From positions 1-44,742 of the forward strand of contig JYFJ02003243.1 in NCBI GenBank assembly GCA_000934665.2: 44,742 bases of DNA, read 5' to 3'. Shown here one piece after another: positions 29,289 to 39,653 of this stretch. The stretch's first letter is position 1. Every line of letters starts with the position of its first letter. Below the pieces are notes generated by a model, which had not been told where the DNA came from, did not search any database, and saw only the letters and a list, made by a program, of their open reading frames with translations. A program made the position numbers and the translations under genes. This DNA comes from Catajapyx aquilonaris. Its lineage: Eukaryota.

Positions 29289-30281
29289 TTAACCGTTTTC
29301 ATCTATTGGATTGTCGGGCGATTCTTTCTCGTCAGCTGCCGCCCGTTCGATTTCACCTTCCGGCTCTTCCTTTTTCTCCGGTTTGTCCGCCTTTTCCTCG
29401 CTCTTCGCTCCCGACTCGTCCTCGTAGCTGTAGTCGGTTCCGTTTTGCGAGTCATCTTCTTCCTCCCCTTCTTCGTCATCGTCTGTTCCTTCCTCGTCGT
29501 CCAGCGGACACCGACTGCATCTGCTTTCGTCAATCCCGTAATTGACGCAAGTGTACCCAACGCACTCGCAGCATCCGTCATGAAACCATCTGTAGCTGTC
29601 CGCACCCATGGAGCTGCACGATTCCTTACACTTGTTCCAGGACATACACTGACTCATGTATGCCACACGACACTTCAACTCGAGTACCTTGCGCTTGTTT
29701 GACTCTCCAGGAGACGAGGTTCCTTCCGCACCAGCTGGAAACGGAGAAATGTGGTTAACTACTTCGGCATGATTGCTCATAAACATGCTACTCACTGGTG
29801 ATGGACGTGACGGTAACCGGTGCGTTTGGATCCAAGTCGATGTCGTCTTCAGCTCGCATGAAGGTGATCGGATACTCAAATGCCGTCCAGCGGTCCTCCA
29901 GGTCCGGCTCGTTGGTCAGAACACGGAATAGTTCGTCAAACGGCTCAAGACGCTCCACGTGGCTCTTCTGTCCCAGCCCCGTGTACGTGTCATTCGGCTT
30001 CGGACACATCCCTGCAGTAAAAACACCGCAATTAACAAGCCCCAAGTTGCGAGTAATAACCCACACTTACCGACGCATGAGCAGCAATCGCTATACATGG
30101 GTCCGAGGCAATTCCAACACTCTTTACAGCAGCTGCAATTCTCCCTGAGGTTGCACCTGCATGCCTGCAGCAACATGCACTTGCTCACAACGCTCGCGCA
30201 CACAGCCTCGTTGCAAGCCACGGACAACGAGACACAACCGCACACCAGGGACACCAACAGGGCCAGCCTGGCCCCCGCCAT
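29289..30281 (-). CDS. tsg: Twisted gastrulation family BMP modulator (tsg/crossveinless/TWSG1)
   Basis: Exons 30281-30071, 30011-29796 and 29734-29289. Signal peptide, CNEAVCASVVSKCMLLQACRC...CCSCVGMCP, and C-domain YMSQCMSWNKCKESCSSMGADSYRWFHDGCCECVG...YGIDESRC. Confidence 0.97.
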
Positions 30282-30417
30282 CTGAGAAGAAAAAAATATA
30301 TATATCACCAAAGTTCTGATGAATCAACTTGGAATTGCTCAAGAACTATTGATTCGAGTGGCCGTCGGATGCAAGTCGCAACATATTGATTAAAACCCAC
30401 AATCTCCATACATAAAT

Positions 30418-30530
30418 CAGAAAATCCGTCTGTATGTTCCGGCTACCTAACCCACTTCCAGGCTACTGAGAAGCACTCTCAGTAGCCTGGAAGTGGGTTA
30501 GGTAGCCCGGACATACAGACTGATTTTCTG
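30418..30530. repeat. Near-perfect inverted repeat of the same family as 163-305
   Basis: cagaaaatc...ggctacctaacccacttccaggctactgaga, a 5-nt loop, then tctcagtagcctggaagtgggttaggtagcc...gattttctg. Confidence 0.85.
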
Positions 30531-30549
30531 CTTACGTGCAAACTTCATG

Positions 30550-35340: not shown

Positions 35341-35700
35341 TGACGTCACATTAACTCGTGTTCGAATTATTTTTCGTTCCATTTGCACCATTGTCGGTTA
35401 ACCAAACTGTCAGAGACTGTTAAAATTGTTAATACTGACGTCACAGGTCATTGTTAACACCTGGCCCATGATGTCACAACTGTTAACATTGTTATTCGTG
35501 GTTCATGACGTCACTATTAACATGCTTCCAGGTCAATGACGTCACTATTAACATGCTTCCAGGCCAATGACGTCACTATTAACATGCTTCCAGGTCAATG
35601 ACGTCACTATTAATATGCTTCCAGGTCAATGACGTCACTATTAACATTCTGGTTCATGACGTCACTGTTGTTAACATACTTCCTGGCCTGTGATGTCACA
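35341..35700. repeat. 31-bp minisatellite carrying CRE palindromes
   Basis: Unit TGACGTCACTATTAACATGCTTCCAGGTCAA. Perfect TGACGTCA at 35341, 35436, 35506, 35537, 35568, 35599, 35630 and 35657; variants TGATGTCA at 35469 and 35691. Confidence 0.92.
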
Positions 35701-35848
35701 ATCTTTTAGTTAACATATTGTTATTCCTGGCCCCATCGTCACGGGCCTTTTTTAATTATTATTATTGTTGCATATTGTTGACGTTTAATGTTGGCATGGA
35801 TTGTGTCTTTGATGCGACTTGTGTCTGGATTTATTAATTTTTCTCCAG

Positions 35849-38800
35849 ATGCATCCGCCCCAGCAGAGCAACTCTGGTGGACGACGGACACCTGCGGCTG
35901 GAAGCAGCCACCATCCGCTGACTCCGATTTCTGAGAGGCAGCAGCTGGCGTTGATCAAGCAGATGACCTCTGCGGATGAGAGCGCCTTACCGAAAGGTAC
36001 AGTATGTTCAGGCACTTACCGAAGGACTTGACAAACCGACCGTGTACAAATCAACTGTATTCTGAGAGAAAACCTAGCTATGTTGATAAGGTTTCTGTTA
36101 CGTTGGCCTGCAATTATTTATAAATTCACCTGTGGAGTGATGCGTAATTTGTCAGTAAATCACGAGCCCTTTACAAGCATGTTTAATGTAATTTAAATCA
36201 ATTCGCGTTCATTCACTTTCCAAACAATGTATAAATCTACAAGAAACATTAACGCTATTCTGACAGTGAGCAAAACTGCTACGTTACTAATAAGGTTTCT
36301 GTTATATTGGCCTCTGGAGTAATGAGCAATTGTCAAAGAACAAGTACTGATAATGCAACAACAGCAGATTGTGCTGATTGTATTGTAAAAAAAATATTTG
36401 CAAGAAAAATACGGTCTCGCTTGCAATACCGTACACTCCCAACGGTATTAGTCTTAATTAATTTTACCAATTAATTTGTTGTTGCTTCTGGTATCGTGTG
36501 ATGAAGTTGATCTGATTGGATTGACATTTTCTCACTTGAGCTACCCCCATCCACATGTGATTCATGAATGAGTGTCATGGACAGGTGCAGGTGACCTTGG
36601 CCTTGAATAAGTTTCTCTTTGTTTCAGGATCATGTAGAGTTGTAGTAATGCAACTACAGGTGGCAGCCGCGTTTCCTGTGGCAATTCGCGGAATATTCGC
36701 ACGTCACAGATGGCGACTCATGTGGGATCGAGTTATATTTTGCAAAAAAAAAATCTCTCTCTTTTAGAAAGGGTGTCAAAATACTTCAAAGGAAGTTACA
36801 TAACTATATGGCAGCTGCAGTCCCATTTTTTTATTGCAACTAGACAATATATGATCATGCTATGTACATGATAAATCAACATGCTGCAAGTTTATTGGTT
36901 TTGTACTGCTCTATTTGCCCGATAATTTTTGCGATAAGTTACGGCTTGCAATAAGAGCTCGCGATGTTGCCAAGTCTTGCTCGGTTTTTGCTGAGTGAAT
37001 TGGGCAGTTGGCAGACGTGATAAAGGAGTGATTGATCAATACTTGCTGCACATGCCCGGGGAAAAAGTACTCCTTTTTTTTCTCCTTCTTTTCTCTCTGA
37101 GGCTTTTCTTTCGAATCTTGCAGCTAATTTAGAGCTTCAGGATATGCCACTGTATGCGTATAAGCGATGATACAAATTAACTGAACATCACTCCAAATTG
37201 TGGCTGAAGTGGATAATGTTTCGCAATGAATAAATATGATTCTGCACATTCTTTCTGATGTGAATGTTATTTGCATTTTTATTTCAGGCAGAAGTGCTTC
37301 GTCGAGGACTGTCCGACGACAGCTGTCATACGTACAGAAGCACAACAGCTTGGGAGAGACATGCCTTCATCTGTCGGCCAGGAAAGGTGACCACAGAGAG
37401 ATCAGACGAGCCCTTAGCCTCGGGGCCAACGTCAACGAACGTGACAATGCAGGTTGGTTTCCTTTTTTTTTTTTTTTTTCTTAAAGTGACGTACACGGTC
37501 CAGAGCATCACAATGTTCATCTGAGAGCTGCTACGCAACCGCAGTCTCACAATGAATTGAAGCATTTATTTCCTCGTTAAAGAATCGGGGAGAGAGCCTA
37601 ATGGTCCAATATCAGGTGATAAAAAGTGCGCTCACAGCACACTTGCAGAGGACATGCGAAGGATCCCAGTCTGATCTAAGGATTCCAGCCCCTAGTTGTT
37701 GCGGTACTGTACATTGAGAGGTAATTTAATATGCATTTCTGTGATATCAGAGGAAAGTGCAACTTTCATTTTCATCCCAAATCTTGTGTATGTTTAAGCT
37801 CATTGTCCAGGGCGAATCCGCGTGTCATGCTACAGTGTGTGACATCACCCCTTTGTTAAACCAAGAGCTGGTTAAACTTGCATCTGAGGCGCCTTACGAC
37901 TTAAAGTCTGAAAGTGTGATGGCACCTTTAAGCGGCGACTGGATCTTAATATGCAATATCTATTTTGGCCTTAGCACAAATGTACAAAATTATGCCATTA
38001 CGCTAATTGTAACAAGTTTAAGGTTCTAACTGCCTTTTGTAATTGAAATGAAGTTTACTCCGCAGCGTACCAACCGGTGGCTTTTCCATTATGCTGATTC
38101 TTATCATGTGCGTAAAGGACATGCAGATGAACCAATCGGTTCACTGACCGCATAATTTTAAAGTGCTGGATTTGTGACTGTGTGCGCACAGCCTGTAAGA
38201 GTAATAACTTGAGCAGGAAGTGCTCTCTGGATGTCTCTCTCTCTCTCGGCTTGGTTGGCAGGCCCGTCTCTGGGATCAATAGTTACACAGAATAGTCAAT
38301 GCTACAGCCCCTCTGTTGGGGTCTCCGACCTCCAGCCTCCAAATCCCCCAGACTTTACTTCCCAAGCACACACACAGCTCGCTATTTACTCTCTTTCCCC
38401 CTCAGCATGATATCCTGATGTGTCACATGTGGCCCACCCATGAACAGCTGTTGGTCAGAATATTTGTTGGCAACATCGGACCCTTTTTGTGTGTGGGTGT
38501 GTTTGGACACACATTTTCCAGAGAAAGCAAGTAAATTCCAAGCTGAAGGGGAAAGACCTTTTCCTGTCTCTCCAGAGTGACCTTGGCCATTTCAGGGCAG
38601 CCTGGTTGCCATATTGACTGTCACGCAAAATATTGTTGGATTGTTGGAAATATTGTTACGAGAAGTAACACAGAACCAGCTATTGTGTACGAAGCTCCTA
38701 ATAGAGCGGTACAATTATGATGATGATGGGAAAGGTTTTATTACACTCGTATTAGTTGCTTCTTCAATACGTCTGATGGTCGCGTGATGCAAATGAGCCA

Positions 38801-39653
38801 TTTACTGGGCGGCCTAGCTGTCTGAACTCGGAAGTAATGACTTAATTTTTGGGGGATCAGGTGACACACTGTGCTTCAAGTACTAACCGGTTTTGCAGCC
38901 GTACTGTTGACATCACAACCAACAATTACTATTCGACGAGAAAAAGTGTGCAGGATTTGCGTGATAAAAATCGGTGGGGGAAAAAAAGCCTTGAGAAGTT
39001 ATTGCGATGCAATTCTTACTAAGGTTTTTATTTTCACCACGCAGCTGCTCATGGTCAAGGTCTCATGTTTGTGTGGTAATGAGGAACCCTTGATGAATAT
39101 TAGAAGGGCGTGGAATATGTATCAGAAGTAGAGCGGGTCCTATAATATGTCGCAATCTTTAGTAAGGATTTGCGATTGACGTCACATCGAGTTTAAAACG
39201 ATGAATGTTTGTTGGTGGCTTTTAGACATCAGCTGTGACCCGATATCATTGTTTTCAGGCTGGGCTGCCCTCCATGAAGCCAGCATAAATGGCAAGTATT
39301 ATGCGGCCAAGACCTTGATCAGAGCTGGTGCAGACGTCAAAGCCCGAGGACTAGACGACGATACACCCTTGCACGACGCCCTGGCCAACGGACACATCAA
39401 GGTGCGTTCATATAGGTCTGCAAAGTACTTGCACTTCTGTACGCACTATATTCATGCAAGATCATGTGATTGTTGCAGTTGGCCAAGTTGCTGGTTCGTT
39501 CTGGCGCGAATCCACAGCAACCGAACGCCAAGGGACAGACTCCTTTGGACGTTGCCAAGTGCCCTTATTTCCAAGTCTCGACTTCCTCGTCGTCGTCGTC
39601 GTCGGACGAAGAGGAAAGCGACGGCAATAACGAGAACTGCGCGCCAAGTTCGG
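35849..39653 (+). CDS. ANKRD11/12: ANKRD11/ANKRD12-family ankyrin repeat protein, 5' part (3' exons not identified in the window)
   Basis: Exons 35849-35996, 37288-37452, 39259-39401 and 39479-39653. Family motif [15 protein letters not shown] (cf. PLSERQQVALLMQMT), ankyrin repeats [29 protein letters not shown] and GQTPLDVA, then an S/E-rich tract. Ends at an open donor GTGAGT. Confidence 0.88.

Follow-up and report, generated by a model that had tools for sequence, protein, structure and literature searches.

The window analyzed here is a 44,742-nucleotide stretch of DNA from Catajapyx aquilonaris (contig JYFJ02003243.1), in which three genes stand side by side: twisted gastrulation (tsg), which encodes a BMP modulator, SPG7, which encodes the mitochondrial m-AAA protease subunit paraplegin, and a gene with ankyrin repeats that is most likely the single ortholog of vertebrate ANKRD11 and ANKRD12, an identity that is not secure. 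The tsg and SPG7 genes are direct neighbors on the same strand and recur as a pair in other arthropods. SPG7 and the ankyrin gene are divergent, an arrangement also found in human. Counting constrained and passive versions of its history together, it is likely that the three genes represent an inherited block of conserved gene order. As the best explanation of the data as a whole we tentatively favor, with slightly less than even confidence, an ancestral block that has been kept by selection on shared or interleaved regulatory DNA.

Structure and identity of the three genes

Gene borders were taken from the contigs of one public run of unrecorded kind (X1; RNA ends, strand and expression level lie beyond these contigs). 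The X1 contigs skip 10 stretches with GT..AG ends on the strand of the gene concerned, as spliced transcripts would. Because the contig over SPG7 ends at 32151 and the 5' untranslated exon of tsg reaches at least 31235, the two genes are direct neighbors, both on the minus strand, with SPG7 upstream of tsg by no more than 0.9 kb. These contig-bounded exons bear out the adjacency of tsg and SPG7 claimed in the original prediction, which had been made from the sequence of the window alone. The coordinates of the features are collected in Table 1.

The tsg gene yields a spliced model of 290 amino acids with a hydrophobic N-terminus and the size of a secreted protein, and two Pfam domains, Tsg_N (1e-18) and Tsg (1.9e-34), were both matched within this single protein. 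The best 120 of 205 homologous matches all carry PF04668, and the informative names among the 120 matches listed are twisted gastrulation, crossveinless or BMP-binding protein. An alignment of 18 Tsg sequences has 25 invariant columns, with the motif WFHDGCC among them. Judged from its sequence, the identity of tsg can be considered secure. The coding introns measure 59 and 61 nt, an intron of 891 nt separates the 5' untranslated exon from the ATG-bearing exon, and the last exon spans 29099-29734 in X1 contigs, its coding part ending at 29289. The C-terminus of Tsg (29289-29560, -) forms an acidic tail of about 80 residues past the last cysteine motif, and the Tsg proteins of several arthropods end in a similar way. 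The start codon directly follows a splice acceptor (CAG, then ATG) both in tsg (30281) and, by prediction, in the ankyrin gene (35849); in tsg an upstream exon is spliced in cis to this acceptor.

Successive exons of SPG7 carry the Pfam domains FtsH_ext, AAA, AAA_lid_3 and Peptidase_M41, and the spliced model contains the zinc-site motif HEAGHA and the Walker A motif GPPGCGKT. Its introns are very short (49-77 nt), and its start is predicted at ATG 34857 or at an in-frame alternative, ATG 34583. When the AAA exon was compared with PDB, the top match was human paraplegin (2qz4, 172 bits), and AFG3L2 was not among the best 60 chains (the 60th scoring 125.5 bits). The protease exon had AFG3L2 as its best PDB match, the sole paraplegin chain there (2qz4, 262 residues) aligning only to the first 56 residues of the exon. 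Among the best 120 of 7965 significant homologs, 48 are named paraplegin or SPG7 and none AFG3-like; identities are 55-66% among the matches listed, which come mostly from arthropods. On similarity grounds the gene can be assigned securely to paraplegin and not to its paralog AFG3L2. A scan of prokaryote genome contigs with the N-terminal exon of SPG7 gave no relative.

A quick maximum-likelihood tree was computed from 25 named paraplegins out of the 120 best matches (95 were left out), the window model and the SPG7 of a metagenomic locus described below (L038). Window SPG7 falls inside the pancrustaceans, weakly beside an ostracod (Shimodaira-Hasegawa-like approximate likelihood-ratio test, SH-aLRT, 86), with its highest identity (72%) to a cricket, and chelicerates and chordates fall outside. 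This grouping with pancrustaceans means that the comparison with vertebrates is one between a protostome and deuterostomes.

The ankyrin gene lies on the plus strand and is represented in the window by a predicted exon A and by exons B, C and D, the last three in phase with one another. These three exons encode about 3.5 ankyrin repeats, beginning around residue 60 of the predicted protein and followed by a Ser/acidic stretch. The ATG of exon A at 35849 directly follows the splice-acceptor-like sequence TTTTTCTCCAG, and because of this position an untranslated first exon of the gene probably lies still nearer to SPG7. X1 contig depth is nil in the bin 35880-36471, which covers most of exon A. 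The gene runs on past the end of the window, and a large plus-strand open reading frame (ORF) is absent from 39654-44742. Just past exon D, a Myb/SANT-like gene occupies the opposite strand, probably within a large intron of the ankyrin gene. Members of the ANKRD11/12 family typically have their ankyrin repeats in one short cluster close to the N-terminus, together with a central Lys/Glu/Ser-rich exon of very large size and a C-terminal domain that is conserved. We read the gene as a putative ANKRD11/12 ortholog because of this architecture, with a short repeat cluster about 60 residues in, a Ser/acidic stretch and a gene that crosses a large intron.

The original prediction had placed SPG7 and the ankyrin gene head-to-head with start codons less than 1 kb apart. 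The divergent orientation and the distance of 991 bp between ATGs 34857 (-) and 35849 (+) agree with this, with the qualification that both ATGs are predictions and that SPG7 has the alternative start given above. As regards a bidirectional promoter, the orientation is head-to-head and the gap between the predicted start codons is 991 bp. The spacer probably holds both promoters together with the untranslated first exon of the ankyrin gene. X1 contig depth extends into it to about 35119, where the contig departs from the window: about 145 further letters are unlike the window, and the break lacks canonical splice-site letters. Such a break could come from a polymorphism, from chimeric assembly of the contig or from an exon that has yet to be placed. 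A donor-like GGTGAGA stands at 35283/35284. In addition, 35341-35664 contains eight of the nine TGACGTCA sites of the window, with 0.71 expected in the whole window. A 31-bp unit that recurs 4.6 times (35505-35647) and that includes a TTCC/GGAA core accounts for part of this palindrome cluster. We take TGACGTCA to be the consensus of the cAMP-response element, and the cluster could represent either an array of regulatory sites or a satellite of recent origin.

Table 1. Coordinates, strand and basis of the features annotated in the window
Feature	Position	Strand	Basis
tsg coding exons	30070-30281, 29796-30010, 29289-29734 (stop codon 29289-29291)	-	X1 contig junctions
tsg 5' untranslated exon (part seen)	31173-31235	-	joint of 30281 with 31173, 63 letters on the short side, GT..AG ends
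SPG7/paraplegin coding region	32190-34857	-	Pfam, contigs, homology
SPG7 introns seen in contigs	32391-32455, 33091-33147, 33525-33580	-	X1
SPG7 introns, predicted	33733-33781, 33941/33947-33998	-	reading frame and homology
SPG7 first intron, ambiguous	near 34601-34695	-	prediction
Divergent spacer	34858-35848	.	between predicted start codons; 991 bp
TGACGTCA palindrome cluster, 8 perfect copies in 324 bp	35341-35664	.	pattern count
Ankyrin gene exon A, predicted first coding exon, non-ankyrin motif	35849-35996	+	ATG after acceptor-like site, GT donor after 35996, phase fits exon B
Ankyrin gene exon B, first ankyrin repeat	37288-37452	+	Pfam Ank 2.4e-4; splice sites and phase
Ankyrin gene exon C, ankyrin repeats	39259-39401	+	Pfam Ank 3.6e-7, Ank_2 5.4e-7; contig junction of 39401 with 39479
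Ankyrin gene exon D, last half repeat, then Ser/Asp/Glu-rich stretch	39479-39653	+	contig junction, phase
NUBP-type P-loop ATPase	1710-2678	+	ORF/Pfam
AP-1 gamma adaptin	~3141-8228	-	191 bits to human AP-1 gamma-1; 65 to AP-4 epsilon
FANCD2	~17340-23218	-	ORF/Pfam
Gene with weak DUF4745 match	25271-27148	+	E 2.2e-5, under Pfam cut-off
Myb/SANT-like gene, spliced	40050-41688	-	Myb_DNA-bind_4 5.3e-12; 3 introns seen in contigs

Linkage of tsg and SPG7 in arthropods and metagenomic DNA

The match tables of tsg and SPG7 share eight species, seven of which have contig data for both proteins. Five of these seven arthropods have both genes on one contig, and the locus tags are 1, 1 and 4 apart in three of the five. 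These three are the click beetle Ignelater luminosus (Tsg ILUMI_04516, KAF2901673; paraplegin ILUMI_04517, KAF2901674; one 170-kb contig), the cockroach Diploptera punctata (L9F63_007559/007560, KAJ9575625/6; one contig) and the longhorn beetle Aromia moschata (NQ318_006275/006279; one contig). Going by annotation practice, consecutive locus tags normally correspond to consecutive genes. The remaining two are Periplaneta americana, with both proteins on one record and close accession numbers, and Athalia rosae, again with both proteins on one record.

Metagenome contigs were also scanned, using the 18-sequence Tsg alignment, and the resulting 45 loci were searched by tblastn with paraplegins and the window SPG7 model. 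Only one of the 45, L038, was matched by SPG7. It carries SPG7 at 1054-4061 followed by tsg at 4873-5779 on the same strand, and order, orientation and the spacing of about 0.8 kb are as in the window. More than 5 kb of sequence upstream of the Tsg C-terminal exon is present in L002, L003, L024 and L038 only; L002 and L003 give the same tblastx rows around tsg, shifted by about 850 bases. The link between tsg and SPG7 has been seen in Coleoptera, Blattodea, the window pancrustacean and L038 and is lost in two of the seven species, and a former link in vertebrates can be deduced only indirectly, from the pairs considered below.

Origin and maintenance of the neighborhood

In human, ANKRD11 and SPG7 are located at 16q24.3 with a spacer of about 18 kb, TWSG1 and ANKRD12 are located at 18p11.22, their mouse counterparts being on chr17, and ANKRD11 and ANKRD12 are duplicates that date from the vertebrate genome duplications. 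A literature search for these two genes as paralogs from the vertebrate genome duplications found no paper. The human ANKRD11-SPG7 locus presumably lacks a TWSG gene, and we take mammalian TWSG1 to lie beyond the 3' end of ANKRD12. In passages of PMC11855469, human ANKRD11 and SPG7 are described as direct neighbors that run in opposite directions from adjoining 5' ends, which is the arrangement of SPG7 and the ankyrin gene in the window. The same passages report deletions of 25-32 kb that take the non-coding exon 1 of ANKRD11, the entire spacer and the first exon of SPG7 and that lower ANKRD11 expression. For the second pair, an ordered table in PMC2923722 lists the mouse genes in the consecutive order Ralbp1-Twsg1-Ankrd12-Ndufv2, which puts a tsg ortholog next to a gene of the ANKRD11/12 family, much as the window has tsg near its putative member of that family. 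Both vertebrate adjacencies had been named in the original prediction, and these sources agree with it. The window differs from the mammalian Twsg1-Ankrd12 pair in that SPG7 sits between tsg and the ankyrin gene, with tsg on the 5' side of the latter.

An old proximity of tsg and SPG7 can be expected even without the ankyrin gene of the window, because the two are neighbors in arthropods and each stands beside an ANKRD11/12 paralog in mammals. Taken together, the arthropod tsg-SPG7 pair and the mammalian pairs predict exactly the ankyrin neighbor that the window has. We suggest that the three genes formed a microsynteny block that would predate the arthropod-vertebrate split and that would still be compact in this pancrustacean, where SPG7 and the ankyrin gene diverge from a predicted spacer of at most 1 kb and the gap from the 3' end of SPG7 to the start of tsg is no more than 0.9 kb. 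Of the copies made by the vertebrate genome duplications, each would have retained the ankyrin gene but only one of its two partners, giving ANKRD11-SPG7 and ANKRD12-TWSG1. Selection may have disfavored chromosome breaks that disrupt regulatory DNA shared or interleaved between the genes, mainly at the SPG7/ankyrin divergent pair, whose head-to-head orientation appears to be the same in the window and in human, and with genes so tightly spaced few breaks could fall in neutral DNA.

Several observations weigh against this explanation, the first group of them concerning the ankyrin gene. No database search confirmed it as an ANKRD11/12 ortholog. With exon C, a word-index search of proteins of up to 2000 amino acids returned 21 candidates and three matches, all three generic multi-ankyrin proteins, an Atlas search returned generic ankyrin clusters only, and a PDB search returned designed or generic ankyrin proteins only. 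With exon A there were no matches among 1.84 billion representatives and nothing usable in Atlas. The gene itself has Ank-family matches in two exons and one junction seen in a contig, and its identity as ANKRD11/12 was confirmed by none of these searches. Furthermore, adjacency of SPG7 and the ankyrin gene was seen only in the window and in human, and a second invertebrate with it was not found, none of the other genomes covered allowing a check. Searched by tblastn, the ankyrin exons matched none of the 45 metagenomic loci. In L038, a six-frame translation of the upstream 1.3 kb did not show a motif like that of exon A, and this locus ends 1 kb upstream of SPG7.

These results would be expected if only tsg and SPG7 formed a conserved pair, perhaps an arthropod one, and the ankyrin gene were either not an ANKRD11/12 ortholog or a lineage-specific neighbor of SPG7, the match to human being partly coincidental. 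Attempts to link the ankyrin exons with ANKRD11/12 failed or gave generic ankyrin proteins, the large exon and C-terminal domain that define the family would lie outside the window, and the adjacency is known from only the two places just named. We nevertheless consider such a history unlikely. About 60 residues precede the ankyrin cluster and a Ser/acidic stretch comes after it, the gene continues past a large intron that hosts another gene, and a neighbor of this kind is what the arthropod and mammalian pairs predict. The repeats and the exon A motif may also resemble those of human ANKRD11/12, a likeness that we take as a lead and not as a test. Of the three-gene ancestral block put forward in the original prediction, the tsg-SPG7 linkage does recur in arthropods; the SPG7-ANKRD adjacency was found in no second invertebrate, and orthology of the ankyrin gene is unconfirmed.

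A second group of adverse observations concerns how firmly the genes are held together. The tsg and SPG7 genes are on different scaffolds in the spider mite Tetranychus urticae and in the ichneumonid wasp Venturia canescens. SPG7 is absent from the DNA that precedes the first coding exon of tsg in L002/L003 and L024 (6.6, 7.4 and 9.5 kb), and L024 has a zinc-finger-like gene upstream of tsg. L038 is without a TGACGTCA site. It takes the 25-32 kb deletions described in passages of PMC11855469 to span the human ANKRD11-SPG7 spacer, and the window spacer is at most 1 kb. Because the human spacer is long, a strict bidirectional promoter of less than 1 kb is not the conserved feature. Moreover, tsg stands on the SPG7 side in the window and on the ANKRD12 side in mammals, a difference from human that the original prediction had recognized and that implies at least one rearrangement.

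The block could also be ancestral and have been kept passively, by tight packing and slow rearrangement and with no shared regulation, as some of the many thousand ancestral adjacencies may be expected to persist. We regard passive retention as a real possibility, although on the unlikely side. The link has proved dispensable in the mite and the wasp, and L002/L003 and L024 lack SPG7 near tsg; window and mammals have tsg on different sides of the block; and the human spacer is long. The three genes, besides, have unrelated functions, and co-regulation of them is hypothetical. Against passive retention, the orientation of SPG7 and the ankyrin gene is head-to-head in both the window and human, a signature that passages of Irimia et al. 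(2012) tie to co-regulation, and an unconstrained pair would probably not have survived in two lineages since their split. A regulatory constraint is suggested by spacers that are very short and a head-to-head orientation that is conserved, both of them hallmarks of co-regulated ancient pairs in those passages, and is weakened by the losses in mite and wasp, the different neighbors in L024 and the long human spacer.

Independent joining of the genes in arthropods and vertebrates is very improbable in our view. SPG7 and TWSG1 belong to the same ancestral linkage group, which raises the rate of chance proximity above the genome-wide one. Even so, for any two genes of a group with several hundred members, the chance of being immediate neighbors should be well under 1 in 100 (a rough estimate and not a computed value). 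Independent joining would require a coincidence of two adjacencies and one orientation, and the tsg-SPG7 link is shared by several orders of insects.

Among the forms that an ancestral, constrained block could take, a bolder one would be a regulatory block more than 500 million years old, in which the SPG7/ankyrin divergent promoter region and the regulatory DNA of tsg were interleaved and could be broken only after duplication, with reciprocal loss then leaving ANKRD11-SPG7 and ANKRD12-TWSG1. This form seems doubtful to us. If true, such an interleaved block would offer a clean natural experiment on the dismantling of duplicated regulatory blocks.

Remaining genes of the window and comparison with known gene neighborhoods

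Stop-to-stop ORFs and Pfam scans show the window to be gene-dense (Table 1). The DUF4745-like gene is tail-to-tail with tsg, and a gene in L003 (16434-16994, -) has the same position and orientation and a clear DUF4745 match (1.6e-17). Three collinear weak tblastx rows connect the window gene at 25271-27148 with this L003 counterpart, so that tsg appears to share its other neighbor with at least one more organism. A low-complexity repeat at 24123-25096 (-) has open frames in several phases. The segments 14273-14674 and 16378-16746 (+) are near-identical, bear ORFs and lie about 2 kb apart, which suggests a local duplication or a repeat family.

Ancient gene neighborhoods are known by the hundred, and one more is not surprising in itself. 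Here one invertebrate block would correspond to two complementary human pairs at disease loci (ANKRD11 in KBG syndrome, SPG7 in spastic paraplegia). It would provide a concrete case in which regulatory entanglement can be set against slow reshuffling as the glue of unrelated genes, and in which the splitting of a block after genome duplication can be followed. For human genetics its relevance lies in the ANKRD11-SPG7 spacer, deletions of which reduce ANKRD11 expression according to passages of PMC11855469. The main texts searched do not link these genes with synteny, microsynteny, ohnologs, bidirectional promoters or regulatory blocks, and supplementary pair lists, which were not covered, may already include them. 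A literature search by peptide motif returned nothing.

On the scale of chromosomes, supplement file 7 of Simakov et al. (2013; PMC4085046) assigns SPG7, TWSG1, AP1G1 and AFG3L1/AFG3L2 to linkage group 12 of the bilaterian ancestor, amphioxus and human, and ANKRD11 and ANKRD12 are not in that table. The window likewise holds AP1G, tsg and SPG7, within 32 kb; the linkage group describes linkage along a chromosome and not adjacency. Between or beside these group-12 genes the window also has NUBP (group 5 if it is NUBP1) and FANCD2 (group 6).

At a finer scale, passages of Irimia et al. (2012; PMC3514665) describe conserved ancestral microsyntenic pairs (CAMPs), unrelated genes that are adjacent across distant phyla and that are enriched for head-to-head pairs, conserved orientation and short spacers. 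For ancient pairs that are co-regulated, these passages predict conserved 5'-5' orientation and short spacers. CAMPs span several phyla, whereas the evidence around the window concerns tsg-SPG7 within arthropods. The names tsg, SPG7 and ANKRD are absent from the main text of that paper.

The genomic regulatory blocks of Touceda-Suarez et al. (2020; PMC7530604) call for conserved non-coding elements or enhancers of the target gene inside its neighbors, and the putative block in the window is known from its gene layout. The likeness to these systems lies in a developmental regulator, tsg, flanked by housekeeping bystanders, and in block copies that would have been resolved differently after the vertebrate duplications.

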